From: a virus
Taxonomy: Duplodnaviria > Caudoviricetes
Length of the DNA stretch: 64,000 bases
IMG/VR virus record: IMGVR_UViG_3300033121_002154
Span: 28,908 to 92,907 of that record
Reading direction: 5' to 3' (one strand)
In this document: positions 1,216 through 60,097 of the stretch, piece by piece
Position numbering within the stretch: position 1 is the stretch's first letter
Layout: each line of letters starts with the position of its first letter
Position numbers and translations under genes: made by a program
Notes under the pieces: generated by a model
Database searches by the model: none
Seen by the model: the letters and a program-made list of their open reading frames with translations, nothing else
Told to the model about the DNA's origin: nothing

Positions 1216-2204
1216 AATTAACTAAAATTATAAATGAATCAAATTTAATTAATATTCCAAGACAAATGCTTGGTGGAACTTTTGCATTTATTAAAGCCAG
1301 ATTTTTGACAATTTCTTATAAATATTCTATTGAATATCAAAAAGCTATTAATATAGAATATAAAAGAAAATCAAATTATGGAATTAAACAGATAAATCAA
1401 GAATTTAAAAAATTAGGTTTATTAACTTTAGAAAATAATAATGCAAAAGAATTTGAATTTTCTCATATGATATTTCCATTAAATTATCAAAAAAGATTAG
1501 AAAATATTAGCCCTTTAAAGTTACTTGTTATAACTTTTACAAAACTTTCACCAAAAGGGTATTATGTAAATGATAATATTGGTATTAAAATTGATCAAGT
1601 AATAAGAATAACTGTAGATAAAAATAAACATATTATGAGAAATCTTACTTATAGAGAATTTAATTTAAAAAAGACACATCAATATTCAATAAGTTTTTTT
1701 GAAAGAGATGCATTTACTTATTTAAAATCATTAAGTGAAACTCTTGAACATGAACTTACACATTTTATTGACTATAAATTAAGAAAAGCACAAAAAATTA
1801 GTAATATTGAAAAAGTTAGTGTTGACGCTAAAGATTTTATGGATTTTAATGTTGAAAAATATTTTCAATCAAAAACTGAATACAAAACTCAATTATTAAC
1901 ATCTTATAGAGGATTGATAAAATATTATGCTCATTATAAGATAACATATGAAAATTTATTTTCAGCATTTCAAGGTTTTCAGAATTCTATTATTTTACCA
2001 CATTGGAGTATATATTTAATATATAATGCCATATATCCACAGAAAATTGAAAAGATTTTAAAAACTATCTTAAATACTTTTTATAAGACCGGGAGATTAT
2101 TAAGAGATAATAAGAAAGAAAAAATTTACATGAAAAAATATATTAAAATTTTATTATCATATAATAAATTACTTAAAAAACAGAGAAATGACAAAACAAC
2201 TTAA
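1212..2204 (+). CDS. putative zincin metallopeptidase with N-terminal leader
   Basis: HELTH (HEXXH) followed by Y..S.TE; N-term MKLTKIINE. Confidence 0.6.
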   Translation: MKLTKIINESNLINIPRQMLGGTFAFIKARFLTISYKYSIEYQKAINIEYKRKSNYGIKQINQEFKKLGLLTLENNNAKEFEFSHMIFPLNYQKRLENISPLKLLVITFTKLSPKGYYVNDNIGIKIDQVIRITVDKNKHIMRNLTYREFNLKKTHQYSISFFERDAFTYLKSLSETLEHELTHFIDYKLRKAQKISNIEKVSVDAKDFMDFNVEKYFQSKTEYKTQLLTSYRGLIKYYAHYKITYENLFSAFQGFQNSIILPHWSIYLIYNAIYPQKIEKILKTILNTFYKTGRLLRDNKKEKIYMKKYIKILLSYNKLLKKQRNDKTT

Positions 2205-3384
2205 AAAATATATATTAGAAATTATCAATGAACAGTTTAATGAAAAAAGAATAATAAGTTCAACAGAAATTGCATATTTAAATAATTTCATTGATATAAT
2301 GAAAAGAATTTATGAATTAACTAAATCTTCTGATTTAAATGATTATAATCAATTTTTAATTTTTATTCAAAAAAATGTTCAAGCTTATCCATTTCTAAAC
2401 AAGGTAAAAAATATAATTAGTGATATTAAAAGAAAAGTTGCAAATTCTAAAACAGCTTCATCTAATTTAGATAAAAACGCAGAAATAATTATGAATTATC
2501 AGAGACAACTGGATTCATTTTTTGATAATTTAAAAAACAATAATTTAAGTCAATTAAATTCAGCATATGTAATAGCTCAAAAAATAAATCAAGTATTTAG
2601 TAAAGCAAAAATTGGAATGAGATATACTGACTTTGGTGAATATTCTAAATCAATTAAAGATATTTTTCAAATGAGCTCGATGGCAAATGCATTCTTTAGC
2701 GGTGGTAAAATTTCTCAATATATTGACGGATTTGATAAAAAAGATTGGGAAAATTTAATCAATTTAAAAATAAAATCCGGGAAAACAAATTTATCACAAC
2801 TTAAAAAATCAAGTGATTATACATATTACATTTATTTTATAAATTCATTAGATAAAGAAATTGAAGATTCTGAGATAGAAAGACAAATTAAGTTTAATTT
2901 TGAAGATGATCCACAATACAAAAATTTAGATAAATTAGTTAATGATTATCAACATTCAAATAATAAAAAATTAATTCCTGAAATATTAAAAGAAATGAAT
3001 AAATTTCCTCAATTAATTAAATATCATGAAAAACTAAAGAAACAACATACAGAATTATATAGAGGAATTCCTGTGAATGTTGATGAAAATGGTGTAAAAG
3101 AATATTCAATAGAACAAATAAAAAAGAAAGAAAAATCTCAACAATTTATTGCTACATCTAATTCTGATTATTCCGCTAAAAACTTTGCAAAATCAAAAGG
3201 GCATTTAGAATCTGTTGGCAGAACATCCGGATATCTTTTAACATATAATGTTACAAATCCAAAAGCTGTTGTATTAGATTTTAAAATTTTTGGTAGTTTA
3301 TTTTATGAAAATGAAATTTTAATTAATCCAAAATATGCAGTTCTTACAAACTATGAATATATTGATAAAGGGTATGAAGAATGA
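2188..3384 (+). CDS. putative R-S-E ADP-ribosyltransferase (Alt/ModA-like C-terminal domain)
   Basis: LYRG...ATSNS..SAKNFA...YENEILI motifs; N-term MTKQLKKYILEIINE. Confidence 0.65.
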   Translation: MTKQLKKYILEIINEQFNEKRIISSTEIAYLNNFIDIMKRIYELTKSSDLNDYNQFLIFIQKNVQAYPFLNKVKNIISDIKRKVANSKTASSNLDKNAEIIMNYQRQLDSFFDNLKNNNLSQLNSAYVIAQKINQVFSKAKIGMRYTDFGEYSKSIKDIFQMSSMANAFFSGGKISQYIDGFDKKDWENLINLKIKSGKTNLSQLKKSSDYTYYIYFINSLDKEIEDSEIERQIKFNFEDDPQYKNLDKLVNDYQHSNNKKLIPEILKEMNKFPQLIKYHEKLKKQHTELYRGIPVNVDENGVKEYSIEQIKKKEKSQQFIATSNSDYSAKNFAKSKGHLESVGRTSGYLLTYNVTNPKAVVLDFKIFGSLFYENEILINPKYAVLTNYEYIDKGYEE

Positions 3385-3709
3385 AAAATGAATTATATTT
3401 TTCCAGCAGAGCAATAAAAATTTACTCTGATGAACCTAATGAATATAGTATTAATAATTTTGATTTAAGAACTTTGATTATTGATAACAGTAATAATAGA
3501 AAAAAATGTATAGTAGAACTTGCAGAATTACAAAAAGAATTACAAAAAGAATTTAATAAAGTTTCTGAAATTTTTTCAAGTTATACAAAAACACTTGTTT
3601 CAAAATATGAAGTAGAAGCTGATAAAATTTTAAAAAAATATGAGTAAACAATCATTACAAGTTATGAATATATTGATAAAGGGTATGAAGAATGAAAAAT
3701 GAATTATAT
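3352..3709 (+). repeat. 47-bp exact direct repeat (3352-3398 and 3663-3709)
   Basis: tatgaatatattgataaagggtatgaagaatgaaaaatgaattatat occurs twice; a second 22-bp repeat at 3630-3651 and 3962-3983. Confidence 0.95.
3381..3647 (+). CDS. small helical protein, paralog of 3692-3979
   Basis: Shared MKNELY...KV.EIF..Y.KT...KILKKYE. Confidence 0.75.
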   Translation: MKNELYFSSRAIKIYSDEPNEYSINNFDLRTLIIDNSNNRKKCIVELAELQKELQKEFNKVSEIFSSYTKTLVSKYEVEADKILKKYE

Positions 3710-3979
3710 ATTTTTAATGGAATAATAAAATTTTATTTAGATGATGATAGCAGAGATAGCTATTTTGTTGGTTCATATGACAGTGATGATTTTCAAAAAA
3801 AAATCTGGAAAGAAATAAAAACTAATAATAAAGAAAAGGCTCTTTCTGAATATGACAGTTTGAAAAGCAGTTTACATAAAGAATATAGTAAAGTTGCAGA
3901 AATTTTTGCAAATTATATTAAAACAATTGTTATAAAGCATGATGTTGAAGGAAATAAAATCTTAAAAAAATATGAGTAA
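3692..3979 (+). CDS. small helical protein, paralog of 3381-3647
   Basis: Shared termini and C-terminal helix pattern. Confidence 0.75.
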   Translation: MKNELYIFNGIIKFYLDDDSRDSYFVGSYDSDDFQKKIWKEIKTNNKEKALSEYDSLKSSLHKEYSKVAEIFANYIKTIVIKHDVEGNKILKKYE

Positions 3980-4238
3980 ACAAACATTTGACGGATTAAT
4001 TATCAATGGGAGGTCTGATATAAAACTTGATTTTATTGATAAAAATATTAGAAATGTAATAAGAACAAGAAAATATAACATTTTAGATAATGATAGAAGA
4101 CATAAAATTGATGAAGAAATTTATAATATTGAAATCGAACTTGATAAAAAACTTCAAAAAATAGATTTTATATATGAATCTTATATTAAAACACTTTTTT
4201 CAGAATATAAATTAAGAATTGAACAAGCATTTAAATAA
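3972..4238 (+). CDS. small helical protein, paralog of 4259-4528
   Basis: F..LI.N.R.D...DF.D...E.Y.I...L..KL.K..FIY.S.IK.L..EYK. Confidence 0.75.
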   Translation: MSKQTFDGLIINGRSDIKLDFIDKNIRNVIRTRKYNILDNDRRHKIDEEIYNIEIELDKKLQKIDFIYESYIKTLFSEYKLRIEQAFK

Positions 4239-4258
4239 TAAATTTAAAAAATAAAAAT

Positions 4259-4528
4259 ATGAATGGAGCACAATTTAGAAGTTTAATAGTTAATAGAAGA
4301 CCAGATATGGATTTTGATTTTGTAGATACAAATTTAATAGATTCAATGCATGAAATGACTTGGGATATTGATGATAAAGTTAAAAAAGAAAAAATTCAAA
4401 ATGAATTATATGAAATTCAAAAGCAACTTTCAAATAAACTTGAAAAAGTAAATTTTATTTATCAGTCTTTTATAAAAGCATTAATTACTGAATATAAACA
4501 AAAGGGTGAAAAAGCTTTAAAACAATGA
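4259..4528 (+). CDS. small helical protein, paralog of 3972-4238
   Basis: Same pattern as 3972-4238. Confidence 0.75.
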   Translation: MNGAQFRSLIVNRRPDMDFDFVDTNLIDSMHEMTWDIDDKVKKEKIQNELYEIQKQLSNKLEKVNFIYQSFIKALITEYKQKGEKALKQ

Positions 4529-5985
4529 AAAAATTGAAAAAACTTCTTGATATAATTAATGAAAATAATGCAAAAAATGCTTATAATTTAATAAAAAATA
4601 TTATTAAAAATACTAAGTGGGATAATAGAATTTTTGCAGCAGGCGGATATGTTAGAGATGAACTTTTAAAAAATACATCAAAAGATTTAGATATTGTTGT
4701 AAATGCAGATAATGGCGGAATTGAATTTGCAGAATGGTTAGCAAAAAAACTTAAAATATATAAGGCAAATTCAAATCCAGTAGTCTTCAAAAATTTTGGA
4801 ACAGCTAAATTATCACTTAAAGGTATAAAATATAATGGTTATGATTTATCAGATTTTGAAGTAGAATTTGTTATGCCAAGAGGAGAAAAATATACGATTG
4901 GTTCAAGAAAACCAGAAGTTTATAAGAGTGATTTAAAACAAGATGCTTTACGAAGAGATTTAACTGTAAATTCTCTTTTTAAAAATTTGACAAATGATGA
5001 AATATTAGATTTAACAGGAAAAGGAATAACTGATTTAAAATTCGGTATAGCAAGAACTCCATTAAATAATCCCGATGAGACATTCAAAGACGACCCACTT
5101 AGGATGCTTAGGTTAATAAGATTTTCTTGTAAATACGGCTGGAAATTACCAAGATTTATGTTATTGGCTTTAAAGAAAAATGCACAAATGATTCAGCATA
5201 TTAGTAAAGAAAGAGTTAGAGATGAATTTGATAAAATTTTAATTTCACCCAATCCAGATAAAGGAATTAGATTGATTCAGTGGACGGGATTAAGTAAATG
5301 GATATTACCAGAATGGGATTCGTTAGTAGGATTAACTCAAAATAAATATCATAATCAAACTGTTGATAGACATATTTTAAGTGTTGTAAAAAATGTTCCA
5401 AGTCATTTAATAGCAAGATTAATTGCTGCATTTCATGATATTGGAAAAGCAGACACAAAAAGTGTTATTGATGGAGAAGTTCATTTTTATTTACATGAAG
5501 ACATTGGTGCTGATATTGCAGAAAAAATTATGAAAAGATTAAAATATCCTATTGATATAATTAATGCAGTCAAATTAGGAATTAAAAATCATATGAGATT
5601 AAAAGGCTCAGGAAATGAAGGTGAGATAATTTCTGATAAAGCTTTAAGAAAATTAAAATTTGAATTGGGAGAACATCTTGAAAATATTCTTGATGTCATG
5701 CATGCTGATAATATTTCTCATTCAGATGAACATAGTATGCCAAATCAGATTCCGGGTATAAGAAAAAGATTATCATCATTAAGTGATATACCAAAAAATC
5801 AGCATATTAAATTACCAGTGTCTGGAAATGATTTAATTATTATTTTTGGAGTAAGACCTGGGCCAATTATGAAAGAAATTTTGAAAGCAGTTGAAGATGA
5901 ATTCTTTAACAATCCAGATATGACAAGAGAAGAAGCATTACAAATAGTAAAAAATTTCATAGATGAATATAAATTTAAAAAATGA
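4525..5985 (+). CDS. cca: class II tRNA nucleotidyltransferase (CCA-adding enzyme) with HD domain
   Basis: GGYVRD..DLD, RRDLTVN, DDPLRMLR, SKERVRDE and HDIGK motifs; N-term MKKLKKLLDIINE. Confidence 0.92.
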   Translation: MKKLKKLLDIINENNAKNAYNLIKNIIKNTKWDNRIFAAGGYVRDELLKNTSKDLDIVVNADNGGIEFAEWLAKKLKIYKANSNPVVFKNFGTAKLSLKGIKYNGYDLSDFEVEFVMPRGEKYTIGSRKPEVYKSDLKQDALRRDLTVNSLFKNLTNDEILDLTGKGITDLKFGIARTPLNNPDETFKDDPLRMLRLIRFSCKYGWKLPRFMLLALKKNAQMIQHISKERVRDEFDKILISPNPDKGIRLIQWTGLSKWILPEWDSLVGLTQNKYHNQTVDRHILSVVKNVPSHLIARLIAAFHDIGKADTKSVIDGEVHFYLHEDIGADIAEKIMKRLKYPIDIINAVKLGIKNHMRLKGSGNEGEIISDKALRKLKFELGEHLENILDVMHADNISHSDEHSMPNQIPGIRKRLSSLSDIPKNQHIKLPVSGNDLIIIFGVRPGPIMKEILKAVEDEFFNNPDMTREEALQIVKNFIDEYKFKK

Positions 5986-6833
5986 AAAACTTAAAAAATT
6001 TAATTAAAGAATCATTTGCATTTTATGGTTCTTCAGAAAATCAAAAAAGTGCAATTAGAACCATTGAATCATGGCTTAAAAGAATAAATATGAAAATTAT
6101 AGGAGCATCACAATTTGGTGAACATGGAACAGTATCACTTGATTTAACAAAAAAGTATTCAGGAGAAATTTATGTTGGTGAAAATGGTTTTGGAGATAGC
6201 AAAGCCGATAGATCTTTCAAGGGTGGATATGGTCGTTTCGGGGGAAGCGTAGAAGTAAACGGAATCCCTATTCCAAATGAAAAAAGTTTTAATGAATTTA
6301 AAAAAGCTATTTTGGAATCTTTAGTAATTCAAAATGAATACAAAAAAATGAAATCATTATCATTAATACAAATATTAGAAACATATTATCATGGTCGAAG
6401 AGGAAAAATTATATTTGATGAAGATAAACCCATGTTTTTTGCCAAAGATAAAGAAACAGCTGATTGGTATTCTGATGCTCGGGGAAAAGGAGAATCAAAT
6501 ATTCTTGAAACTGATTTAGATATTAAAAAACCTTTTAAATTATACTCGAAGAAAGATGCCTTTAAATTTATAGAAATAATTAAAAGGGCAGGATTTGATA
6601 TAGTCATTGACTATAAAAAAGTAGGATGGGATATACCACAAAAATATACTCAACCTGTTAGAGATCATTCACCTTATGATGGAGAAAATTTAATTGATTG
6701 GATATATGTTCCTAAAGTAAAAGATCAATTAAAAAAAGAAGGATATGATGGGATATTAGCATATGATATTCTTGGAAATAAAGAAATTGAAATTGCCATT
6801 CCATTTTTTAAAAGACAAATAAAAAATTTATAA
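5982..6833 (+). CDS. two-module protein; C-terminal ART-PolyVal-like domain
   Basis: N-term MKNLKNLIKE; internal second leader MKSLSLIQILE followed by YYHG...FFA.DKE.A..Y...GYDGI. Confidence 0.55.
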   Translation: MKNLKNLIKESFAFYGSSENQKSAIRTIESWLKRINMKIIGASQFGEHGTVSLDLTKKYSGEIYVGENGFGDSKADRSFKGGYGRFGGSVEVNGIPIPNEKSFNEFKKAILESLVIQNEYKKMKSLSLIQILETYYHGRRGKIIFDEDKPMFFAKDKETADWYSDARGKGESNILETDLDIKKPFKLYSKKDAFKFIEIIKRAGFDIVIDYKKVGWDIPQKYTQPVRDHSPYDGENLIDWIYVPKVKDQLKKEGYDGILAYDILGNKEIEIAIPFFKRQIKNL

Positions 6834-6835
6834 AA

Positions 6836-7483
6836 ATGAAATTAAACATTATAATTGAGAATATTAATAAGCATAATTTATTTTTAGACATTATTTTAAA
6901 AAAAGCTAATGATTCTGGAATTAATATTAATAGTGCTAAATTAATATCAAAATCAAATAAAACATTTTCATTGGAGATTATTATCAGGAGAGAAATTGAT
7001 GCCAAACCTAATGAATTAAATAAAATTGAATTATTTAAAAAGTGGTTTTATGCACTTCTTAATAAAAACAAATATTTTATAGAAGATAATAATGAGTGGC
7101 TTACTGATACTGGTTTTCATGATGATTTATTTAGATTTGAAAAAAATAATGATGTTGCAATAAAAAAATTACCAAAATTTATTTATCATTTTACAACAGA
7201 AGAAAATTTAAAATCAATTCTTACTCATGGCTTAATTCCAAAAGCAAATAATAAAATTGAAAATCATCCGAAAAGAATTTTTTGTTTAACAACAAAAAAT
7301 AAAAAGTGGACATTTGAACAAAGTCTTTTATATCATTCTAAAACAAACTTCAATCATTTACGATTAATAAAAATTGATACATCAAAAATTAATAATAAAT
7401 TTTATTTAGACAATGATACAGTCGATGGAATATACACAAATACAAAAATTAATCCTATTGCATTGACATTAGCACATTTATAA
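6836..7483 (+). CDS. ART-fold (Tpt1/DUF952-like) protein
   Basis: IYHFT..ENLKSIL..GLIP...RIF...LIKID...Y...I.P. Confidence 0.55.
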   Translation: MKLNIIIENINKHNLFLDIILKKANDSGININSAKLISKSNKTFSLEIIIRREIDAKPNELNKIELFKKWFYALLNKNKYFIEDNNEWLTDTGFHDDLFRFEKNNDVAIKKLPKFIYHFTTEENLKSILTHGLIPKANNKIENHPKRIFCLTTKNKKWTFEQSLLYHSKTNFNHLRLIKIDTSKINNKFYLDNDTVDGIYTNTKINPIALTLAHL

Positions 7484-7496
7484 AAAGTTTTATAAA

Positions 7497-7916
7497 ATGA
7501 AATTAATCAAAATTCTTGAAAATTTAGATATTAGAGCTTATCCAAAGAAATTATATCACATTACTTTTGTAAATAATTGGAATAATGGAATTTTATGGGA
7601 TGGTTTAATTCCTCAGAAAACTACTAGAACAATTCATGATAAAAAACCAAAAATTTATTTTATTGACACTGATTTTAGTTGGCAATATTTAGCAGATGAT
7701 TTGGCGAAATATAATAAAGAAGATTATGCTTTATTATTAAAAGTTAATTTAAATAGTTTACCAAAAAATATTAAATTTTATGAAGATGAAGATTCAAATG
7801 GATATTATACTTATTCAAAAATTCCTAAGTCTGCAATATCTCATGTAGGTTCTTATAAAATTAATAGAGAATTTGATATCAATCCTTTTAATGGGAAAAA
7901 AACTTATTATAAATGA
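7497..7916 (+). CDS. ART-fold (Tpt1/DUF952-like) protein
   Basis: LYHIT...GL.P...KIYF...LLKV...YYT...IP..AI; N-term MKLIKILE. Confidence 0.55.
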   Translation: MKLIKILENLDIRAYPKKLYHITFVNNWNNGILWDGLIPQKTTRTIHDKKPKIYFIDTDFSWQYLADDLAKYNKEDYALLLKVNLNSLPKNIKFYEDEDSNGYYTYSKIPKSAISHVGSYKINREFDINPFNGKKTYYK

Positions 7917-8752
7917 ACATAAAAAAATTACGAAATACTGTATTAAAAAGAAATCATATATACATAAAGTCAAAAATTCCACTAAATATTAGTAAGCTTA
8001 AAAATATAGCATCTGATGGATTTGTCGGTAATAAAAAATATTTTGAATTATTTTCTACAAGTTTTAAATACAATAAAATTTTTATGATGCCTTATGATGA
8101 TGTATTTAAATTTGATGCACATGATAATTATGATAATTATTTATATGAAATTATACTTAAATCTGAAAAAGTAAAACAAGATTTAATAAGTCGTAATGAA
8201 AATGGAGAACCTGAAATTATATTATATTTTTCAGATATTGCACATTTATCATTAGTTATTAGTGAAAAACAATTTGATAGATACAACAAAAAAAAATACA
8301 ATAAAATTATAAATGATAAAATTTCTAGTGAACTTTTTCAAGTTCTGAAATCATATATGATGGGATATGGGGAAATGGAAAAGGAATATTATAATTCTTT
8401 TCAAAAATTTAAATTAAATCGTAAATTAATTTTATTTAGAGGATTATCAATAGATATATATCATAAAAATTTTAAAAATTTTAAAAAAAATAAAATTATT
8501 AATTTAAATCTTTTACACTCGTCAAGCTGGACTACCAATCTTGTGGTTGCAAATGACTTTGCAGTAACAATGAGTGATAGATGTATCGGGATGATTATCA
8601 CAGCGACAATCTTTCCAAAAGATATTATAATTGATACAAGATTATTGCCCTCAGAAACATTAGATTCTTTATACACAGGAAATCAAAGAGAAATTATTGT
8701 AAAACCAGGAAAATACAAAGGGAGAATTGTCTCAATAAATGAAAATTTATAA
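7913..8752 (+). CDS. putative R-S-E ADP-ribosyltransferase
   Basis: LFRGL...SSWTT...VANDFA...QREIIV. Confidence 0.65.
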   Translation: MNIKKLRNTVLKRNHIYIKSKIPLNISKLKNIASDGFVGNKKYFELFSTSFKYNKIFMMPYDDVFKFDAHDNYDNYLYEIILKSEKVKQDLISRNENGEPEIILYFSDIAHLSLVISEKQFDRYNKKKYNKIINDKISSELFQVLKSYMMGYGEMEKEYYNSFQKFKLNRKLILFRGLSIDIYHKNFKNFKKNKIINLNLLHSSSWTTNLVVANDFAVTMSDRCIGMIITATIFPKDIIIDTRLLPSETLDSLYTGNQREIIVKPGKYKGRIVSINENL

Positions 8753-9578
8753 ATCATTATATCACATATTAGATTATGATAGTTTAGTATATGCATTGAA
8801 ATGTAATTGCTTAAGGGGTAATCATTATGCCGGTCAGGTTTCATTGACAAAATCTAAAGATTTGAACTATTATATTGGCGCAAGATCTGGTTCATTTATT
8901 AAACTTGAATTAGATGGCGTTTTGCTTGCAAAAGATTATGATTTAAAAAATTTTACATTTGTATCACATACAGGTATAAGATTTAGCGGGGAAAAAGAAG
9001 TTTTAATACAAGGTGAATTAAAAAATTTATCAAAATATTTAAAAAGAATAATTTTAATAAAAAGTGAAATTGAATCATTAAAAAATACAAATTGGTTTAC
9101 TATCAAGGGTGTTAGAAATGGTGTTGGCCAAAGAAGTCTACCAAGTATAGTTAATTCTATATACAAAAAATTTAAAAATATTTTATATGTTCAAGATGAT
9201 TCTGAAATTAAAAAAGATAATATTTATATAAAAAACTTAATCAATTATTCATTGAAGTCTGTATTTGATGGATATGCAATTTATTATCGTGGTTTTGAAA
9301 GAAAATATTCAGATAATTGGCATGGAATTATTAATAAAGAAATATGTTTACCAAATGATATAGCAAATCCGATTATAAATCAACTTGTTATTGGTTATGA
9401 CTATGAAAATTTGAAATTATATAAAAATTTAGATGATTTAAATAAAAATATCAAATTAAAGAAAAATTTTAAAATATACTATTTTAAGTTTGAATATGAA
9501 TCAAAAGATATAAAAAAAGATTTTAAGAAATTTTGTTTAATTACTTCTGCAAGATTAATTGATATAGATTTATTATAA
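8739..9578 (+). CDS. possible ART-fold protein
   Basis: LYH...L...L...VSLTKS...IKLELDG..L...EKE. Confidence 0.4.
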   Translation: MKIYKSLYHILDYDSLVYALKCNCLRGNHYAGQVSLTKSKDLNYYIGARSGSFIKLELDGVLLAKDYDLKNFTFVSHTGIRFSGEKEVLIQGELKNLSKYLKRIILIKSEIESLKNTNWFTIKGVRNGVGQRSLPSIVNSIYKKFKNILYVQDDSEIKKDNIYIKNLINYSLKSVFDGYAIYYRGFERKYSDNWHGIINKEICLPNDIANPIINQLVIGYDYENLKLYKNLDDLNKNIKLKKNFKIYYFKFEYESKDIKKDFKKFCLITSARLIDIDLL

Positions 9579-9613
9579 AAAATTAGATTTTATTAAAATA
9601 AAAAAATAAAAAA

Positions 9614-10051
9614 ATGAAATTAAATCAATTAAAACTTTTAATTAAAAAAGTGATAAAAGAATCAAAAGCTTCTGATGAAGCTCATAAAAAGGGATTGGAA
9701 AGTGCTGGTTTTGGACATTGGAAAGACAAAAGTGGTAAGATAGTTGCCACAACTTCGGATGATAAACTTGTTTTTAATAAAAATAAAGATGATAAAAAAG
9801 AAAAAAGTGAACAAAAAAATGATGAGGATTTATTTAAAGTTGATAAAGAAGATAGATTATATAATGAAGATTTAGATGATAATGGTAATGAAATTTTAAA
9901 TTATGCTTCAAAAAAATATCCAAAAGTTGACACAAATATTTTAAAAAAGAGAGTTGAAAGAATGATGAATGATGATTATTATATTGATGATGATACTGGT
10001 TTTGTAGACAGAAAAAAGTTTAAAAATCGTTTAAATACTATATTTAAATAA
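9614..10051 (+). CDS. probable internal head protein
   Basis: N-term MKLNQLKLLIKKVIKE, then ASDEA.KKGL...GFG.W.D..G..VA motif recalled from T4-like phage proteins. Confidence 0.5.
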   Translation: MKLNQLKLLIKKVIKESKASDEAHKKGLESAGFGHWKDKSGKIVATTSDDKLVFNKNKDDKKEKSEQKNDEDLFKVDKEDRLYNEDLDDNGNEILNYASKKYPKVDTNILKKRVERMMNDDYYIDDDTGFVDRKKFKNRLNTIFK

Positions 10052-10052
10052 A

Positions 10053-10847
10053 ATGACATTAAAAAAAATATTAAATGAATTGATATATGCCGAAAAAATT
10101 CCAAATGATTTATCAAAAATTTATTGGAAAAATGGTAGAATTGCATTTAGCACAGATGACATGACAATGTTATTTGATTCTATAATTTTTGGAGTTAACA
10201 AAGAATCAAAAGAATTATTTTATTATACAATGGATGATTGGTCTGAAATTCGTTCAATCAAGCATATTCAGCAAGCTTTAAAAGATTTAATACGTGCAAA
10301 AATTATTGATTTAACATGGATTGTAACAATTGAAAGTAAAAAAAATACAATACGTTCTTTAAATTCAAATAAAGTCAAAGACATAATAAATATTGATACA
10401 AATTTTAGTAATAAAATTCCATTTTGTTTTCATGGAACTTCCACAGAATATCTACCAGATATTTTAAAAAATGGTATTATTAATAGAAAAAATTCAAAAA
10501 CAAAACCAAACTGGGATAAAGGATATGTTGAAATATCTAAATATAACATTTATCTTACAATTGATTATCAACGTGCAGTTTATTACGCAAACAAAACAGT
10601 AGAAGCAAATAAAAATCAAGGAATAATTTCAAAGCCAATAGTTATAATGATCAAAGATTTAGATACTAAATTTGCAATAACTGATGATGATTATTTGACA
10701 CATAAAAATTTATCATTACTACAATATTTAAGAACAGGTAAGAAAGCAAAAGATAATTATATTCAGGGAATTCGTAATACATCACAATTTGCATATACAA
10801 AAAATATTCCTGCAAATAAAATTTATAAAGTATTTAAACGACATTAA
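10053..10847 (+). CDS. ART-fold (H-Y type) protein
   Basis: FHGTS...L.DILKNGI...IYLT....A..YA...IP; N-term MTLKKILNE. Confidence 0.6.
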   Translation: MTLKKILNELIYAEKIPNDLSKIYWKNGRIAFSTDDMTMLFDSIIFGVNKESKELFYYTMDDWSEIRSIKHIQQALKDLIRAKIIDLTWIVTIESKKNTIRSLNSNKVKDIINIDTNFSNKIPFCFHGTSTEYLPDILKNGIINRKNSKTKPNWDKGYVEISKYNIYLTIDYQRAVYYANKTVEANKNQGIISKPIVIMIKDLDTKFAITDDDYLTHKNLSLLQYLRTGKKAKDNYIQGIRNTSQFAYTKNIPANKIYKVFKRH

Positions 10848-10858
10848 AAAAGGAAAAA

Positions 10859-11341
10859 ATGCCAACAATTAATTTAAGTATTAAAGTTATTCCACAAGGT
10901 TTATATGATAAAAATAATGACTCACTTATAACAGAAGTTTATCCAACTGTTAATTTGTGGTCACTTACATCTGGAACAAAACAATTGTCAGGTCAAAGTA
11001 CAGCAGTTTTAAATAGATATACATTTAAAACTCAAATGAGTTATTCATATGCTGGTTCGGCTTCTGCAGATCGTCCACTTTATATTCAAGTGACACTTCC
11101 AAACCATATTGAAATTTGGAGTAGTACATCAATAATATTCAATCAATCAGTTACATCAAATTATAATTATGATTTTACGATAGCTCAAACAAAAACATTA
11201 GGAGATAATTCAATTAATGTAAGTACTTCATCTTCAAGATTTGCAATGTTTGTTGGTGATTTAAATAATGATGGAATAATTGACACAACTGATTTAAGTA
11301 CTTTAGAAAATAATATGGATATTTATGCAATTACCCCTTAA
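10859..11341 (+). CDS. protein with dockerin-like Ca-binding domain (paralogous to the N-terminal part of 42549-44132)
   Basis: NHIEIWS...YDFT...FAMFVGDLNNDGIIDTTDLS..EN. Confidence 0.7.
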   Translation: MPTINLSIKVIPQGLYDKNNDSLITEVYPTVNLWSLTSGTKQLSGQSTAVLNRYTFKTQMSYSYAGSASADRPLYIQVTLPNHIEIWSSTSIIFNQSVTSNYNYDFTIAQTKTLGDNSINVSTSSSRFAMFVGDLNNDGIIDTTDLSTLENNMDIYAITP

Positions 11342-11349
11342 ATAAAAAT

Positions 11350-12513
11350 ATGGATATATTAGATAAAAAAATAGAGAACCCAGAAACACATAGACAGATA
11401 AAATTAAGTACTGCATTACATCATGATAAAGATGATACAGTATATAAAACAGCCAAAAATATTATTGATAAAAGTAAAAAAGAAAAAAAACCAAAAAAAG
11501 AACCAAGTATTTTTATTAAAAAATATGGCAATTTAAAATTAAATGCATTTCCACCTGAAGATGTGAAAGAGGAAGATGTAAAAGTTAATACAGAAGGTGA
11601 CATTCATAGTCATGCTGTGTTAACTTGGCGTGATCCAAAAACTGGTCGTGCTGTAAATAGTTACACTCAAAAATTTATGAAAAGAAATGCAAAAATTAAA
11701 TGGGCTAGAATAAAAAAATTAAATAGCCATAAAGTTGAATCTATAATAAAAGAATCAAATGATGAATTAAATTCAGATGATCCCGAAATAAGTGATAGTG
11801 CTGCAATCATTTCTATAATTGCACAAACTGGATTAAGAATAGGTGATCATACCAATTATAATAGAACTAAAAATCGTGGTGTAATGACACTTGGTCCTGA
11901 AAATATAAAAATTGAAGACAATATAATTAAATTAAATTTTGTAGGTAAAAGTTATAAAGAAAACAATGCATCGATAAAAGATGAAAAATTAGCAAATTAT
12001 TTACAAAAAAGATTAAATGAAAATAAAGATAAAAATTTTATATTTGATACTGGGTATAATGAAGTAAATAGTTTATTTGATAAATTTGCTGGAAATAAAT
12101 TTAAAATCAAAGATTTAAGAACATATACTGCAACAACTATGGCAAAAAATATTCTCTTAAAAGATAAAACTCCACCGCCACCTTTGCCTGAAAATGATAG
12201 ACAAATAAAAAAAGCAATTAAGAAAAAATTATTAAATGTATTTGAACAAGTTAGCCAGAGATTAAATAATACACCAGCAATGGCAAAATCAAGTTATATT
12301 CATCCTGAAATTATTAATAAATGGTTAGCAACATTAGGTGTAAGAGAAGAATTAACAAAAGAAGTATATTCAGAAGGAAAAATATTTGTTAATTTATTAA
12401 CAGAAGAAAAGAAAAGTTCAACATTTAAAGTCACAAATGATTTTGAAGATTGTGATGAATATGAATTACCAAAATGGTGGAATGATGAAAATGTTAAATT
12501 AATTAAAAAATGA
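11350..12513 (+). CDS. DNA topoisomerase IB (bacterial/pox-type)
   Basis: TGLRIG, F.GK, KDLRT, NTP..AK.SYIHP catalytic set (R,K,R,N,Y). Confidence 0.9.
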   Translation: MDILDKKIENPETHRQIKLSTALHHDKDDTVYKTAKNIIDKSKKEKKPKKEPSIFIKKYGNLKLNAFPPEDVKEEDVKVNTEGDIHSHAVLTWRDPKTGRAVNSYTQKFMKRNAKIKWARIKKLNSHKVESIIKESNDELNSDDPEISDSAAIISIIAQTGLRIGDHTNYNRTKNRGVMTLGPENIKIEDNIIKLNFVGKSYKENNASIKDEKLANYLQKRLNENKDKNFIFDTGYNEVNSLFDKFAGNKFKIKDLRTYTATTMAKNILLKDKTPPPPLPENDRQIKKAIKKKLLNVFEQVSQRLNNTPAMAKSSYIHPEIINKWLATLGVREELTKEVYSEGKIFVNLLTEEKKSSTFKVTNDFEDCDEYELPKWWNDENVKLIKK

Positions 12514-13454
12514 AATTAATAAATATTTTAAATGAATTACGATATTTAGATTATCAAAAAGATATTGCTAATAATAAAATTTTAAAAGATAATGAAACAA
12601 TTTCAGTATTTCACGGGTTTGCTCAATTAAATCAAGCATTGTTAGCAATAAAATTTGGATTATCTGGTAAAGAAAATGCTGATAGAAGATATAGTTATGA
12701 ATATGGTAATAATCCTAAAGGTTTATTTGTAAGTGCAGATATTCAAACAATAATTCGCTCACATTTTGCAGGTAGCGGTGTCATCATTCAATTTTCAACA
12801 AAAGTAAAAAATCTTGAATCACCTGTTTGGGTAGGTGGAAGAAGTTACTTTGTTCAAGGTGAATATACAAAAAGTTTTAAAGATGATAATGAAAGAGAAG
12901 AACAAAGATTAAAAAATAGAGAAAGAGATAGTGCAAATATATATCCAACAATTTCAAAAAGTGATAGGCCTGAATTGGCACAAACATTATTTGATAATAT
13001 GGAACATCAAGCTTTGTTTATTGGACATTTAAATCCAAATATGATTAAGTATGTTTGGGTACATAAAAATTTAATGATTAACAAAAGAACAAGTGGAATA
13101 TGGAAGAAAATGCAACCAAAAGTATTTTTAAAAAAATATTTTGAATCAAATGCTAAATCAAAAACACAATCTTATAATAGAAAAACTCAAAAATGGGAAT
13201 ATGGAGAAGAGGATTATTCTGATGAATATTATAAACATTTAGATAAAATTTTTAAACCAAATGATGATTTTAATTTAAATAAAGTTAATGAATATTTTAA
13301 AAAACATAAATTTACAATAAGTGGAAATGAATATACATCTTTTACTCTAAATACATTTTTAAAATCTTTTTATCAAAGTAGAATTTATGAAGATTATATA
13401 GACAAAATGTTTTGGCCAAAACAAATTGAGCAAATTGAGCAACTTTTAAAATAA
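12510..13454 (+). CDS. possible ART-fold protein with N-terminal leader
   Basis: VFHG......GL...GLFVS...EHQALF; N-term MKLINILNE. Confidence 0.45.
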   Translation: MKLINILNELRYLDYQKDIANNKILKDNETISVFHGFAQLNQALLAIKFGLSGKENADRRYSYEYGNNPKGLFVSADIQTIIRSHFAGSGVIIQFSTKVKNLESPVWVGGRSYFVQGEYTKSFKDDNEREEQRLKNRERDSANIYPTISKSDRPELAQTLFDNMEHQALFIGHLNPNMIKYVWVHKNLMINKRTSGIWKKMQPKVFLKKYFESNAKSKTQSYNRKTQKWEYGEEDYSDEYYKHLDKIFKPNDDFNLNKVNEYFKKHKFTISGNEYTSFTLNTFLKSFYQSRIYEDYIDKMFWPKQIEQIEQLLK

Positions 13455-18726: not shown

Positions 18727-18779
18727 TAAAATTTCAAAATAATTTTTTATTGATTAAAAAATATAAAATATTTATTAAA

Positions 18780-19409
18780 ATGATAACTATAAAAAAAATA
18801 TTAAATGAAATTCTTTTAAATGAAGGAATGGAAAAAGATGCATTAGTAGATAATGCAAGTAAGGCTTTATTCAAAGTTATGAATAAATATGCTACTAAAG
18901 AAAATAGATATCAAGCCATATTATTGGTAATAATGCAAGCTATAGATTATAGATTAAATTCTGTAGATGATAGCTTTAAATATCTTCAATATATTGCACA
19001 TAACATTCTTCGTGGGGAAAATTTTCAATTGAATAATAATGCTATGGATATATTATTAGATAAAGAAAAAGTAAATTTGGATAAAAATGAAGATTTTAAT
19101 GAACATGATGAAATTTCATTAGATGGAATTGTAATAAATAATAGAACAAAAACTGTTAATTTTGGTGACAACCCTTCTATACAAATGCCAAATATTCAAT
19201 TTAAAATTTTATATTTCTTAATGTCTCATCCGGATGTATTTTATTCAAGACAATCAATATTAAAAAATGTTTGGGGTGATAGAGGATATGATGTCAATGA
19301 TAGAAATGTTGATGTTAAAATTTCACAATTAAAAGGATTTATGCCTAATGAATTCAAATCAAAAATAATTGGTAAAAAGAATATTGGATATAAGTTTGAT
19401 TCTAAATAG
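18780..19409 (+). CDS. OmpR/PhoB-type winged-helix DNA-binding protein lacking a receiver domain
   Basis: FKILYFLMSHP..FYSRQSILKNVWG....DRNVDVKISQL...GYKF (Trans_reg_C pattern); start MITIKKILNE. Confidence 0.85.
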   Translation: MITIKKILNEILLNEGMEKDALVDNASKALFKVMNKYATKENRYQAILLVIMQAIDYRLNSVDDSFKYLQYIAHNILRGENFQLNNNAMDILLDKEKVNLDKNEDFNEHDEISLDGIVINNRTKTVNFGDNPSIQMPNIQFKILYFLMSHPDVFYSRQSILKNVWGDRGYDVNDRNVDVKISQLKGFMPNEFKSKIIGKKNIGYKFDSK

Positions 19410-19454
19410 TTTTTAATTGATAAATAACTAAAATAATATTTATTAAAAAAATAA

Positions 19455-19667
19455 ATGAATAAATGTAATGGTGTTTTTGTAAATCAAAGTTTTCCAGGTG
19501 AATCTGTAGATTCACTATTAAAAAAATTTAAGAAAAAAATTAAATTATCAAAAATTCTTCAATTAAAAACTGAATCAGATGTTTTTATAAAACCATCTGT
19601 AAAAAAGAGATTAAAAAAAATTGAACAAATTAGAAAAAATCAAAGTAATTTAAAATTAAATTTTTAA
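19455..19667 (+). CDS. rpsU: ribosomal protein bS21 homolog
   Basis: GESVDSLLKKFKKK......L.......F.KPS.KKR; position next to scaffold and capsid genes. Confidence 0.8.
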   Translation: MNKCNGVFVNQSFPGESVDSLLKKFKKKIKLSKILQLKTESDVFIKPSVKKRLKKIEQIRKNQSNLKLNF

Positions 19668-19706
19668 AATTTTTCATTTCAATTATAATTTAGAGGAGCG
19701 AGTTGC

Positions 19707-20807: not shown

Positions 20808-20869
20808 ATTTTATATAAAAATAAAAAAATAAAAAGTATTCTTTTTAAATAACTTGGGAGAAATAAGAA

Positions 20870-22606
20870 ATGAATTATAATGAATTAGTAAAACTTACTC
20901 CGCAATTTAATGAAAGAAGTTTAGAACAAAGAGATAGACGAGCTAAACTTTTGGTTGAAAAGTGGAATAGAACTGGTCTTTTAAAGAAAATGTCATCTGT
21001 TGAAAACAGAAACAATATGGCTATGATTTTAGAAAATCAGGCTTTGGCGTTAAGACAATTAAATGAAAGCTCATCTGTAGCTGATATTGCATCTTTTAAC
21101 AAAGTTGCATTTCCGTTAGTAAGAAGAGTTTTCGGTTCTCTTTTAGCAAATGAAATTGTATCTGTACAACCAATGAATATGCCTTCTGGTTTATTATTCT
21201 ATTTGGATTTTGTATATGATAGAACAAAACCTGGATTCTCTTTCGAAAGTGGAAAATCCTTGTATGGTAACAGAAATGCCGTAGTATCTTCAAAATTGCA
21301 GGGGATTGGAGGTATGAACGCTACAGGAGGTTATTATAACCTTAATAGTTCATACTCAAAGCGAATGTTCAGAATATCTTCACAATTGGCATCTGCTTCT
21401 GCTTCATATGCAAGTATTACAGCAACATCACCAACTGTTACAGGAACTTTATCAGGATTTAATTTTACTTTAGCTGCTTCTGATGGAAGTATTGATATAT
21501 CTCAATTAAGAGTTATCAGACCTGTAAGATCTGGTGAAATCAGTTATGAAGGTGGATCTTTTAGAAGTTTATCAGCTATAAAATCCATAACGGCAGATTC
21601 ACTTGCTCCAACAATTGATCAAGGTTTAACACAGTTAGTTGATGCAAGTACAATTAGAATTTTTTCAAATATATATTTAAAAGGAAATAACTTAGAACTT
21701 GGTAATGCTACTGGTTCTATGTCAGCTGTTTTGGTTGGACCTGCAGCTACAAAAATTGATGATTTAACACCATCAACATTAGTTGGTGATTTTGAATCTG
21801 TATCAGAAATTCCACAAGTAAATATTCAAATTAAATCTGTTCCAGTTGTTGCAGTAACAAGAAAATTGAAAACTGTATGGACACCAGAATTATCACAAGA
21901 TATGAATGCTACTTTAACTTTGGATCCTGATGTTGAATTAACAAAAGTTCTTTCAGAGTCAATTGCACTTGAAATTGATAATGAAATTTTATCTGATTTA
22001 TTAGCTGGTGCGGAAGTAAAAGCTGTATGGTCAAGAAAAATCGGTAGATATTTGAAATTAAATGCTGACGGAACTGTTACTTTACAATCATTTGCAGATG
22101 CTTCAAACGGTACCTATCAGGCAAATTTTGGAACACAAAATGAATGGTATCAAACATTTATTGAAACAATCAATGCTTGTTCAAATGAAATCTATAAGAG
22201 AAATAAAAGATCTGGTGCAAACTGGATTATAGTTTCTCCTGAAATCGCTTCAATCATTGAATCACTTTCACAATTTCAAACTGATATTGTATCAGATTCA
22301 GCAAAATCTATATACTCCGTTGGAGTTACAAAAGTAGGTATGTTGAATAGCAGATATACAGTTTACAAAAATCCTCATATGCCGGTTAATAAAGTTCTTA
22401 TCGGTTACAGAGGAGATTCATTCTTGGAAACAGGTTATGTATATAGTCCTTATGTTCCTTTATTAATTACACCGACTATTTATGATCCTGAGAACTTCAC
22501 TCCAAGAAAAGCCGTTATGACAAGATATGCTACCCAAATGGTTAGACCAGAATATTATGGTGTTGTTACCGTATTTGATCTTGATATAATTGGTAACGGT
22601 TTATAA
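20870..22606 (+). CDS. gp23: major capsid protein (T4 gp23-like)
   Basis: ILENQ, PLVRR, VQPM..PSGL.F, RKLK..WT.E..QD, EID.EI, Y.PYVPL, F.P....TRY. Confidence 0.97.
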   Translation: MNYNELVKLTPQFNERSLEQRDRRAKLLVEKWNRTGLLKKMSSVENRNNMAMILENQALALRQLNESSSVADIASFNKVAFPLVRRVFGSLLANEIVSVQPMNMPSGLLFYLDFVYDRTKPGFSFESGKSLYGNRNAVVSSKLQGIGGMNATGGYYNLNSSYSKRMFRISSQLASASASYASITATSPTVTGTLSGFNFTLAASDGSIDISQLRVIRPVRSGEISYEGGSFRSLSAIKSITADSLAPTIDQGLTQLVDASTIRIFSNIYLKGNNLELGNATGSMSAVLVGPAATKIDDLTPSTLVGDFESVSEIPQVNIQIKSVPVVAVTRKLKTVWTPELSQDMNATLTLDPDVELTKVLSESIALEIDNEILSDLLAGAEVKAVWSRKIGRYLKLNADGTVTLQSFADASNGTYQANFGTQNEWYQTFIETINACSNEIYKRNKRSGANWIIVSPEIASIIESLSQFQTDIVSDSAKSIYSVGVTKVGMLNSRYTVYKNPHMPVNKVLIGYRGDSFLETGYVYSPYVPLLITPTIYDPENFTPRKAVMTRYATQMVRPEYYGVVTVFDLDIIGNGL

Positions 22607-22632
22607 AATAAAAGTAATATAAATATATAATT

Positions 22633-58921: not shown

Positions 58922-60097
58922 TTATTTTTTTAACCAAATAATATATTTTATTCTATTTTGCTTTTCATTATAAGTAATTATTTCACTATTTAATAAACCA
59001 TTTCCGGCTTTTACATAAGTGCTATCATAACCTCTTTTATTTAAATTTGAATAATCTAAATTAAAAGAATTGCCCCTATACCAACCATCATAAACAAAAG
59101 GATTTCCAGTATGAACTTCATATACCAAAAGTATTTTATCATTATCATATCCAGTATAACCTAATGACTTACTAACAACTTCACTAAAATAATTTCCTTC
59201 TCCATAAGCCTTACCACTATATTGATAATTTCCGGTTGGTCTAATTTTTAATCCCTGTTTTAAAATTGATAAAACAGAGGAGCATCTTGTTCCGTGAATA
59301 AGAAATTTTGTTTGAGAATTTTTTTGTTTTTTTAACCAATCTTCAAAAATTTGTTCTTCTTTTGAATTTTTAATTTTAAAAATTGAACCAATTTTATTTG
59401 TAATTTGTTTTTCCAAAAAACTAATTTCTTTAGGAAATTTGCATTCTTCCATTTCAACGCCAATTTCTTCAAGTATATTTTTTCTTTTTGAATTATTATT
59501 ACTTATATTATTTTTAAATCTCATTGAAATTTGTGAAGACATAGCATCCAAATTATCTTGTTCCTGAGTAAGTGTATCTTTTAAATCTATTTCAGGTAAA
59601 ATATGATTTTGCACTTTTTTCATTTTTCTTGGAATCAAAGTGTATAAATCAATGAGATTTTCATTAATTTTATCCTGATCTTTTTTATTATTAAGTGAAT
59701 TTAAAACATTTAAAATTCTTTGTGCTTCATCAATTTGATTCTGAGTTACATTTTCAGATTTAACAGAATATGTTTTGCTTACCAAATTATCTCTGTATAA
59801 CTTCATAAGGTTCATAAATTCACTAACCTTTTTGTCTTTAATTTCATTTGAATCCAATAATACATCTGAATCATTTTTAACCTCAGTTACAAACTGTGTA
59901 ACATCTTTATAGCCCTTTTTTATCTTTTCATTATACTTTTTAGACCAATCAGAATAATTATATGAATGTTGAATTGACGTTAATTCAACCCTACCATAAT
60001 TTACTGTAAAAGTATTGCCACCGTCATATTTCATTTCATAAAACTTATTATTATTATCTTTCGTAATCATAATAAGTTTATTATAATTTTGATTCAT
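58922..60097 (-). CDS. poly(ADP-ribose) polymerase-like protein (WGR + regulatory + catalytic)
   Basis: NNNKFYEM..YGRV..K.KKGY (WGR); LYT.IP (regulatory); HGT...G.G.YF...S..Y...L..SE...Y (H-Y-E). Confidence 0.88.
   Translation of the reverse strand: MNQNYNKLIMITKDNNNKFYEMKYDGGNTFTVNYGRVELTSIQHSYNYSDWSKKYNEKIKKGYKDVTQFVTEVKNDSDVLLDSNEIKDKKVSEFMNLMKLYRDNLVSKTYSVKSENVTQNQIDEAQRILNVLNSLNNKKDQDKINENLIDLYTLIPRKMKKVQNHILPEIDLKDTLTQEQDNLDAMSSQISMRFKNNISNNNSKRKNILEEIGVEMEECKFPKEISFLEKQITNKIGSIFKIKNSKEEQIFEDWLKKQKNSQTKFLIHGTRCSSVLSILKQGLKIRPTGNYQYSGKAYGEGNYFSEVVSKSLGYTGYDNDKILLVYEVHTGNPFVYDGWYRGNSFNLDYSNLNKRGYDSTYVKAGNGLLNSEIITYNEKQNRIKYIIWLKK

Follow-up and report, generated by a model that had tools for sequence, protein, structure and literature searches.

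A head-block cluster of divergent ADP-ribosyltransferase-like genes, candidates for delivery with the DNA, in an uncultured T4-like giant phage

Eight adjacent genes of an uncultured giant phage are proposed here to encode separate, mutually very divergent enzymes of the ADP-ribosyltransferase (ART) superfamily that would be packaged in the phage head and injected into the host. The genes occupy 11 kilobases (kb), from position 2188 to position 13454, of a 64,000-nucleotide stretch (the window) that forms the last 64 kb of the 92,907-base IMG/VR virus record IMGVR_UViG_3300033121_002154, a record with an estimated completeness of 44%. Each gene is named below by its first position in the window. 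We regard the proposal as a whole, enzymes and delivery together, as probable, and hold it with moderate confidence. Its parts differ in strength. Predicted models show the ART fold in 12510 and 8739; profile searches tie 6836 and 7497 to 8739; 12510, of the type in which the signature begins with His (H-type), appears to found a conserved family of its own; and 5982 matches the ART-PolyVal type below threshold. Gene 10053 is probably ART-like and is the weakest of the H-type calls, and the R-S-E pair, 2188 and 7913, of the Alt/Mod/DRAT-like, protein-modifying type, are leads.

The first-pass annotation, made from the letters of this DNA, had proposed an unusually large and diversified set of ART-fold genes here, aimed at host transcription, translation, or defense proteins at the time of injection. 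All eight open reading frames (ORFs) and their motifs were recovered on translation as a contiguous run on the + strand (Table 1), and graded evidence from folds and families upholds the claim of a diversified set. An ART fold for all eight is borne out in part, by modeled cores for 8739 and 12510 and by profile links for 6836, 7497, and 5982; 2188 and 7913 are without hidden Markov model (HMM) support. Signatures of a nicotinamide adenine dinucleotide (NAD) site stand in the right order and spacing as R/TS/ExE in 2188, R/S-x-T/QxE in 7913, H/F/E in 5982, H/S-x-T/E-K-E in 8739, H...D in 6836 and 7497, and H/S/Q-G-E in 12510, while H-G-T is the clear part of the signature in 10053. Comparisons between families with hhalign were weak (E values of 4e-4 to 0.7, aligning at most the H motif) apart from that of 6836 with the N-terminal domain of 8739; the eight genes are therefore not recent duplicates of a single gene. 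When all family profiles were run leniently over the record, no candidates were added, and PHROGs gave no named function for any of the eight. Pattern scans of viral contigs found no near relatives of 8739, 6836, the 10053 family, the 2188 domain, or the pair formed by 7913 and its upstream paralogue; scans of metagenome contigs found none of the last two.

Table 1. Features of the window and of the upstream part of the record. Positions are those of the window unless prefixed G000, which marks positions in the record; lengths are in amino acids (aa); motifs are read from translations; a slash separates a leader from the residue that follows it.
Feature	Position	Strand	Length (aa)	Leader	Domains, motifs, and matches
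2188	2188..3384	+	398	MTKQLKKYILEIINE/Q	Helical N-terminal part; C-terminal R-S-E ART-like domain, aa ~275-398 (LYRG...ATS...ENE)
CCA-adding tRNA nucleotidyltransferase	4525..5985	+		MKKLKKLLDIINE/N	Within cluster; Pfam PolyA_pol 3.4e-20 plus RNA-binding and HD domains; phrog_2244 1.2e-53
5982	5982..6833	+	283	MKNLKNLIKE/S	C-terminal ART-PolyVal-like domain, aa 134-281 (YYHG...GYDG...EIEI)
6836	6836..7483	+	215	MKLNIIIE/N	C-terminal minimal H-type ART-like domain, aa 103-214 (IYHFT...FYLD)
7497	7497..7916	+	139	MKLIKILE/N	Paralogue of 6836 domain, aa 6-118 (LYHIT...FYED)
7913	7913..8752	+	279	None	C-terminal R-S-E ART-like domain, aa ~170-279 (LFRG...SSSWT...QRE)
8739	8739..9578	+	279	None	Two domains: N-terminal Tpt1/DarT-like ART fold, aa 1-~156 (LYHIL, S-x-T, E-K-E); beta-rich C-terminal domain, aa 175-279
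10053	10053..10847	+	264	MTLKKILNE/L	N-terminal domain; C-terminal H-type ART-like domain, aa ~115-264 (CFHGTS, IYLTIDY)
Type IB topoisomerase	11350..12513	+			Between 10053 and 12510; Pfam Topoisom_I 2.1e-20
12510	12510..13454	+	314	MKLINILNE/L	ART fold, aa ~25-207 (VFHGF; H35, S75, Q116-G117-E118)
gp23-type major capsid protein	20870..22606	+			Pfam Gp23 3.3e-71
WGR-PARP protein	58922..60097	-		None	Among leftward genes, outside the 11-kb region; PARP (PF00644) 73.3 bits against a cut-off of 26.7, E 2.4e-20; WGR 22.5 bits against 22
T4-type large terminase (TerL)	Upstream of window (G000)				
gp20-type portal	Upstream of window				Pfam E 2.3e-64
gp21-type prohead protease	G000 15319-15963, upstream of window				Peptidase_S77; Pfam E 1.2e-26
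NUDIX gene	Upstream of window				
DUF5661 gene	Upstream of window				

The test for an ART fold, a split beta-sheet core in a confident model, was applied to 8739 and 12510, and each model was also compared with 48,161 PDB chains in an unbiased fold search. This was the structure-prediction check that had been suggested for the cluster, and for both genes the best PDB matches were ART-superfamily enzymes. The AlphaFold2 model of 8739 (70 sequences; predicted local distance difference test [pLDDT], 95.0) matched yeast Tpt1 best (Z 9.1; root mean square deviation [rmsd], 2.8; 107 of 120 residues), followed by KptA (Z 7.7) and DarT (Z 7.5, 7.4, 6.9, and 6.7). Fifteen chains reached a Z of at least 5, all of the ART superfamily or ART-like save BC2332, which matches the second domain, and Foldseek gave probabilities of 0.95 to 1.00 against Tpt1/DarT. 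The ART lobe of the model starts at residue 1, and the N-terminal lobe of Tpt1 is absent.

For 8739, a word-based search yielded 2 homologues and a profile search across 1.84 billion representative sequences yielded 580. The first 125 residues form stand-alone proteins of about 150 residues and recur five to six times in giants of 1200 to 1829 residues, where DUF5661, NUDIX, or a PARP-like stretch is present as well. When 49 members of this N-domain family were compared with Pfam (E <= 0.1), 10 matched Tox-ART-HYD1, 4 DarT, 2 Tpt1, and 2 one unrelated family, so that only Tox-ART-HYD1 and DarT were matched by more than two members; six of seven PDB profile matches were DarT1 or Tpt1 (E values of 0.067 to 1.5). 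The putative catalytic residues are strongly kept in the family (H in 66, S in 67, T in 66, and two Glu in 67 and 68 of 70). As a separate observation, the C-terminal domain of 8739 (residues 175-279; positions 9261-9578) resembles BC2332 (Z 6.1) and, more weakly, two NAD toxins of the RES type, MbcT (Z 4.0) and ParT (Z 3.6), a hint that it is possibly a second NAD-related domain.

Genes 6836 and 7497 join this group by several routes. They are paralogues (blastp E 4e-8, 30% identity over 105 residues), and 7497 falls within the 6836 family profile at E values of 1e-33 to 1e-40. Comparison of the 6836 family profile with the 8739 N-domain family by hhalign gave 82 to 89% (E 1e-5 to 2e-6), iterative searching merged the two families, the A4 profile matched 6836 at an E value of 1.2e-4, and in the natural proteins P0136 and P0171 an 8739-like protein is fused with a 6836-like domain. 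The 6836 family keeps YH-T...GL-P and, later, [FW][YW]-x-D, the H...D signature. At one spot in 6836, Pfam matches below threshold converge on Tpt1 (0.0038), Tox-ART-HYD1 (0.025), and DUF7002 (0.026), with DarT also appearing in a search of the phage's own genome; 7497 had no Pfam match of its own, either in the full scan or in a scan of the isolated domain. None of these genes reached the curated cut-off of a Pfam ART family. For Tox-ART-HYD1 (PF15633; cut-off, 25 bits), 6836 scored 15.7 to 15.8 bits, 7497 and 8739 gave no match, and the metagenomic relatives P0168 (31.6 bits) and P0207 (39.9 bits) passed the cut-off only as sums of partial stretches. Scores for Tpt1/KptA (PF01885) were 13 to 17.7 bits against a cut-off of 26, and 6836 reached 13.5 bits over 23 profile positions for DarT (PF14487), where the cut-off is 22.5. 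The catalytic tetrad of Tpt1/KptA is Arg-His-Arg-Arg. Pfam scans of the region showed no DarG-type or macrodomain partner. By these similarities 8739, 6836, 7497, and probably 10053 lie nearest the nucleic-acid-directed Tpt1/DarT/HYD branch, so that four of the eight candidates look most like a branch that the first-pass annotation had named only in passing.

The family of 12510 is the freshest element of the cluster: it has more than 300 members in metagenomes, is without a Pfam model, and lacks relatives in cultured phages. We found 324 homologues (E <= 0.01), 45 to 52% identical across the full length; only 1 of the 120 listed (P0022) has a Pfam domain, a separate ART-PolyVal domain at residues 334-491, beyond the part in common with 12510. 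A Pfam scan of the isolated domain gave no ART family, and the family profile matched no PDB sequence at an E value of 10 or below. The AlphaFold2 model (44 sequences; pLDDT, 82.9) points the same way as that of 8739. Foldseek returned nothing at E <= 0.001, yet its list consisted almost wholly of ART toxins, and in the fold search 12 chains reached a Z of at least 5: TreX, which we take to be an ART, at the top (Z 7.1; rmsd, 3.6; 109 residues), then Scabin, EcPltA (two entries), DarT1, CARDS toxin, pertussis toxin S1 (two entries), Tpt1, KptA, PARP16, and domains 4-5 of CNFy. These Z scores are modest but one-sided toward the ART type, and the matches span residues 25-207. The family conserves H (43 of 44), S/T (44 of 44), and Q-G-E, which is intact in the window copy.

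Genes 5982 and 10053 were approached through profiles. Against Pfam ART-PolyVal (PF18760), 5982 scored 23.3 bits (E 1.2e-4; cut-off, 31.2), and in a search of its own genome it was the sole place in the record to match that model (25.3 bits, E 1.1e-6; profile positions 28-137 of 140). A profile built from the ART-PolyVal domains of related phages likewise matched 5982 alone among the 222 ORFs (E 2e-7; 140 of 163 positions); we describe it as like ART-PolyVal and do not file it as a member of that family. For 10053, six homologues were found. A profile of the seven sequences gave just two matches among 177,635 PDB sequences, Tpt1 (7kw8; E 0.0086) and DarT1 (0.17), two of the seven members reached Pfam Tpt1 at 0.017 to 0.026, and the motif H127-G128-T129 is invariant. 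Comparison of 10053 with the 6836 family by hhalign aligned the H motif only (28 to 30 columns, E 4e-4 to 9e-3).

For the R-S-E pair, the leads come from motifs and from ESM-Atlas. Protein 2188 is 35% identical over 147 residues to the 160-residue ORF-066 of Tenacibaculum phage PTm1, with R, TS, and the last E kept. Its nearest Atlas clusters are ADPrib_exo_Tox and Mod_ADP_RT (0.94 to 0.95), with a structure TM score of ~0.6 to ART clusters. Gene 7913 has a 486-residue paralogue upstream of the window (G000 21484-22944; blastp 8e-27, 40% identity in the domain), in which RG, SWTT, and NQRE are identical, and its Atlas matches are to DRAT clusters (0.94; structure TM, 0.62, which "meets the bar for a name"). 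A composite R/S/[QE]xE pattern, drawn up after 2188 and 7913 had been viewed, occurs in 2 of the 222 ORFs of the record, in none of 1384 ORFs of related loci, and in none per proteome in 200 shuffles; for this reason a chance origin of the motif pair seems unlikely.

The record holds ART-superfamily candidates beyond the eight. The WGR-PARP protein (Table 1), which first surfaced as a Tpt1 match below threshold, belongs to the PARP family by its score and is the only ART-superfamily gene of the record above a Pfam cut-off. With it and the paralogue of 7913, we count ten putative ART-superfamily genes in the 93-kb record.

Thirty related records provide a comparison. The 12510 type occurs in all of them by construction of the set (45 to 52% identity), and in six or seven of these loci another ART-like gene lies within 10 kb. 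The 8739-type domain occurs in 6 of the 30 and ART-PolyVal in 10 (above cut-off in 6), and the 10053, 7913, and 5982 types occur in none. The cluster may thus be called unusually large, as had been claimed, relative to these phages; the claim does not hold against the literature, where at least 10 ARTs are given for Bacillus phage G (PMC9503650).

The case for delivery is made by gene position and by the N termini. The genes run along the genome in the order TerL, gp20 portal, S77 protease, ART-like cluster, and gp23, and the 11-kb region lies within a rightward head block whose upstream end is the protease gene and whose downstream end is the gp23-type gene. Six of the eight candidates begin with an MKL..IL.E-like leader of the T4 type, ending in L/I-x-E, and a gp21-type protease is encoded in the same genome. 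The motif [LI]-x-E falls within residues 4-15 in 36 of 70 + strand genes of the head block, as against 11 of the 75 genes that run leftward (Fisher p 2.7e-6); of the 47 genes between the protease and capsid genes, 27 have it. A stricter leader pattern gives 32 of 70 and 6 of 75. Many rightward genes have near-identical leaders, eleven of them of the MKITKKQLIKLIKEQ type, and the CCA enzyme and a regulator of the PhoB type, unrelated as they are, also bear the leader. Its Glu is invariant in the 12510 family (44 of 44) and the 10053 family (7 of 7). By our own reading, E-[VIL]-[RK] directly precedes the domain in 19 of 23 proteins of the 12510 type, and an L-x-E-[VIL]-[RK] junction lies ahead of the internal 12510-like domain in 8 of 9 fused proteins.

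According to the available text of PMC9026906, T4 gp21 cleaves after L/I-X-E, a capsid targeting sequence of 10 residues suffices for head loading, and T4 Alt, which loses a 7-residue propeptide, is delivered with the DNA; the leader described here is comparable. The accessible part of PMC9503650 likewise predicts head-packaged ARTs encoded near head genes. Because the cluster lies between the protease and capsid genes and six of its eight members carry the L/I-x-E leader, delivery at injection, as proposed in the first-pass annotation, is plausible; packaging itself is a prediction from sequence. The cluster genes would be transcribed together with the head genes, the short leader would cause each protein to be loaded into the prohead core, and the gp21-type protease would then trim the leader off. 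The trimmed proteins would be ejected with the DNA into the host cell, and in the course of take-over they would draw on its NAD+ to ADP-ribosylate proteins of the host and possibly also nucleic acids.

Several observations weigh against this reading. No Pfam ART family reached its curated cut-off on any of the eight genes. Evidence is thin for three of them: 2188 and 7913 have neither HMM nor PDB sequence support, the overall quality of their Atlas models is poor (pLDDT 0.55 and 0.47), and the alignable part of 10053 is limited to some 30 to 60 residues around the H motif. The Z scores of 12510, at most 7.1, fall in what the tool calls its "middling" range. At residue 94 (positions 12789-12791) the E shared by 42 of 44 relatives is replaced by Q in the window copy of 12510, a change that could impair it. 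The window copy of 8739 (residues 84-86; positions 8988-8996) departs from its family at two Glu columns, with G84 in place of an E kept by 67 of 70 relatives and K86 in place of one kept by 68, and could be impaired if this alignment is correct; the mismatch disappears with a shift of one residue, the local sequence being G-E-K-E. The leader is absent from 7913 and 8739. Finally, a matrix of the phage's own leader applied to nine fused relatives found tag-like sites in two, of which one lies at a domain junction (L037, residue 431); with one junction site in nine, we rejected internal leaders in fused relatives as general support.

The alternative that survives best, although we consider it unlikely, is that the genes encode real ARTs that are not packaged and act late in the producing cell or on phage parts, the N terminus being a feature of translation or assembly. 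Packaging is argued from gene position and a short motif, two of the eight genes are without that motif, the Glu-Val-Arg-Tyr that follows the leader in the 12510 family could be part of the fold (residues 11-20 have a pLDDT of 78), and T4 ModA and ModB offer a parallel in acting after injection. These points must be set against the enrichment of the leader in the head block only, its presence on two unrelated proteins, and the fact that it ends in exactly the motif cut by T4-type proteases, one of which the phage encodes, as given in the available text of PMC9026906.

Next in standing, and doubtful, is the view that 2188, 7913, and 10053 are not ARTs, their motifs having arisen by chance in adenine- and thymine-rich, fast-evolving orphans, so that the cluster would hold five ART genes rather than eight. 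Neither R-S-E gene has HMM, PDB sequence, or homologue-based support. Neither Pfam DRAT (PF07357) nor ADPrib_exo_Tox (PF03496) matched anywhere in the record at E <= 1 or in domain-only scans, the isolated domains of 2188, 7913, its paralogue, and PTm1 ORF-066 gave no ART family in Pfam, and searches of PDB sequences with the 2188 domain and the 7913 pair gave unrelated weak matches only. By the tool's own note, moreover, Atlas scores of 0.94 to 0.95 are reached by up to about 4 to 10 in 100 shuffled proteins. What speaks for ARTs is that R, S/T, and [QE]xE are retained in the paralogue domain of 7913 (40% identical) and in the PTm1 homologue of 2188, that the composite motif is absent from shuffled proteomes, and that Atlas feature and structure searches agree on the clan for both genes; for 10053, it is that the sole PDB sequence matches are two ART-fold enzymes.

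Ranking after it, and improbable, is an RNA-repair function, in which 6836, 7497, 8739, and 10053 would be enzymes of the Tpt1/KptA kind that, with the CCA enzyme and ten tRNA genes, restore tRNAs damaged by host defenses. Tpt1 ranks first among the structural matches of 8739 and among the PDB profile matches of 10053, the CCA-adding enzyme lies inside the cluster, the window contains 10 tRNA genes, and KptA-based repair is known in jumbo phages from the accessible part of PMC9503650. The scores for Pfam Tpt1 nevertheless stay at 15 to 17.7 bits against 26, 8739 does not have the N-terminal lobe of Tpt1, and DarT is a nearly equal match (Z 6.7 to 7.5). The four to five divergent copies, and the repeats of five to six copies in giant relatives, suit fast-evolving conflict proteins better than housekeeping repair. 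The weakest and most improbable suggestion, that several of the products, 12510 and perhaps 8739 among them, have an ART fold but are catalytically dead, being kept as structure or scaffold in the head core or the apparatus of ejection, would fit the conservation of 12510 alone in all related records, as for a structural core gene, together with its Q94 and the two discordant Glu columns of 8739, but the H, S/T, and Glu of the active-ART type are the most conserved residues of both families, Q-G-E is intact in 12510, and the differences in 8739 vanish on a one-residue shift.

Should the preferred reading, of delivered ARTs, hold, the phage would bring together ten natural ART variants in compact form, six of which a leader marks for delivery, and would offer defined candidates for finding new bacterial ADP-ribosylation targets in protein, DNA, or RNA. 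The leader with its L/I-x-E end would also provide a simple sequence rule for predicting injected proteins in uncultured T4-like giant phages. A bolder extension, which we judge unlikely as it stands, is that the nucleic-acid-directed ARTs (8739, 6836, 7497, and 10053) are loaded into the head and injected together with the CCA enzyme and the topoisomerase IB, that ADP-ribosylation of host DNA or tRNA ends, and not of RNA polymerase, is the first act of take-over, and that a large uncultured clade of jumbo phages has, in the 12510 family, a new core virion enzyme. If this were true, DNA ADP-ribosylation of the DarT type, a bacterial weapon against phages, would have been turned into an offensive tool of a phage.

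Jumbo phages with many ARTs are already in print, in the accessible portions of PMC9503650 (Iyer et al. 2022) and PMC7824862 (Iyer et al. 2021), and head-packaged ARTs and polyvalent effectors have likewise been published; the value of the present case is in its particulars, not in the principle. Like Bacillus phage G and the jumbo phages described in those portions, this is a giant phage of the myovirus type with about ten divergent putative ART-superfamily genes, one of them PARP-like, and its ARTs lie near head genes, a position taken in the available part of PMC9503650 to mean packaging. The resemblance extends to structure: in the BFVD predicted viral structures, eight Bacillus phage G proteins stand among the 21 best matches and are the best viral structural matches of the 12510 model. 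Unlike in phage G, eight genes are gathered in 11 kb between the prohead protease and capsid genes, most with a T4-type leader, and tblastn against 50,697 GenBank phage records found no homologue of 12510, 7913, or 5982.

The R-S-E candidates recall Alt and ModA/ModB of T4, to which this phage is related in type, and the Atlas neighbors of 2188 are of the Mod_ADP_RT/ADPrib_exo_Tox type, but BLAST and Pfam show no sequence homology to Alt or Mod. T4 has three ARTs of one clade, whereas the ten candidates studied here fall into several clades, half of them nearest Tpt1/DarT. With Tpt1/KptA and DarT the likeness is one of structure, the N-domain of 8739 having its best matches there (Z 9.1 and 7.5), while the unmet Pfam cut-offs, the missing Tpt1 lobe, and the lack of a DarG-type partner in the Pfam scans of the region set the cluster apart. 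Polyvalent proteins with ART-PolyVal, as presented in the available text of PMC5512222 (Iyer et al. 2017), draw on the same repertoire of domains. Relatives of the window proteins also fuse domains, P0022 being a 12510-like protein with ART-PolyVal, and P0168 and P0207 combining DUF5661, repeated HYD-like ART stretches, and NUDIX in one polypeptide; in the window, by contrast, the domains are separate ORFs, a "split" arsenal rather than several domains in one protein.

The genome in which the cluster resides has a GC content of ~22%. Its portal shares no more than 35% identity with the portals of GenBank phages (the nearest being Microcystis and Flavobacterium phages), and with its T4-type head genes this marks the source, on sequence grounds, as a distant uncultured T4-like giant phage; megablast of the whole 11-kb DNA against GenBank phages gave no match. 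A related locus (L010:3851-11416) encodes a CCA-enzyme domain and a 12510-like domain within one ORF of 2521 residues. The topoisomerase IB (positions 11350-12513) is of the eukaryote/poxvirus type and is flanked by two ART-like genes in the head block. The two leaderless candidates, 7913 and 8739, have 14 bases in common (positions 8739-8752; ATGAAAATTTATAA); the C terminus of 7913, ...SINENL, is like the end of a leader.

Other features of the head block deserve mention. Upstream of the window (G000 15960-26216; L008), eleven proteins of 72 to 303 residues share a near-identical 14-residue leader, MKI[ST]K..L[IV][KR]LI[KR]E, and look like a family of small head-internal proteins. A 330-residue protein (positions 1212-2204, + strand; leader MKLTKIINE, followed by S) has an HExxH motif (LEHELTHF) and no Pfam match, and is possibly a packaged metallopeptidase. 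Four small paralogous genes of 88 to 95 residues, in two pairs, lie between 2188 and the CCA enzyme (positions 3381-4528, + strand); they have no leader and share a C-terminal motif, [IF][FY]-x-[SN][YF]-x-K-[TA]-L. Dockerin-type calcium-binding repeats, not expected within a phage head block, occur in the products of 10859-11341 (weak) and 42549-44132 (26.1 bits), both on the + strand. DUF5661 (L007:5768-6628) and NUDIX (L008:5188-5721) are separate genes in this phage, and in the giant metagenomic proteins P0168 and P0207 (1260 to 1829 residues) the same two domains are fused with five repeats of the 8739-type domain.

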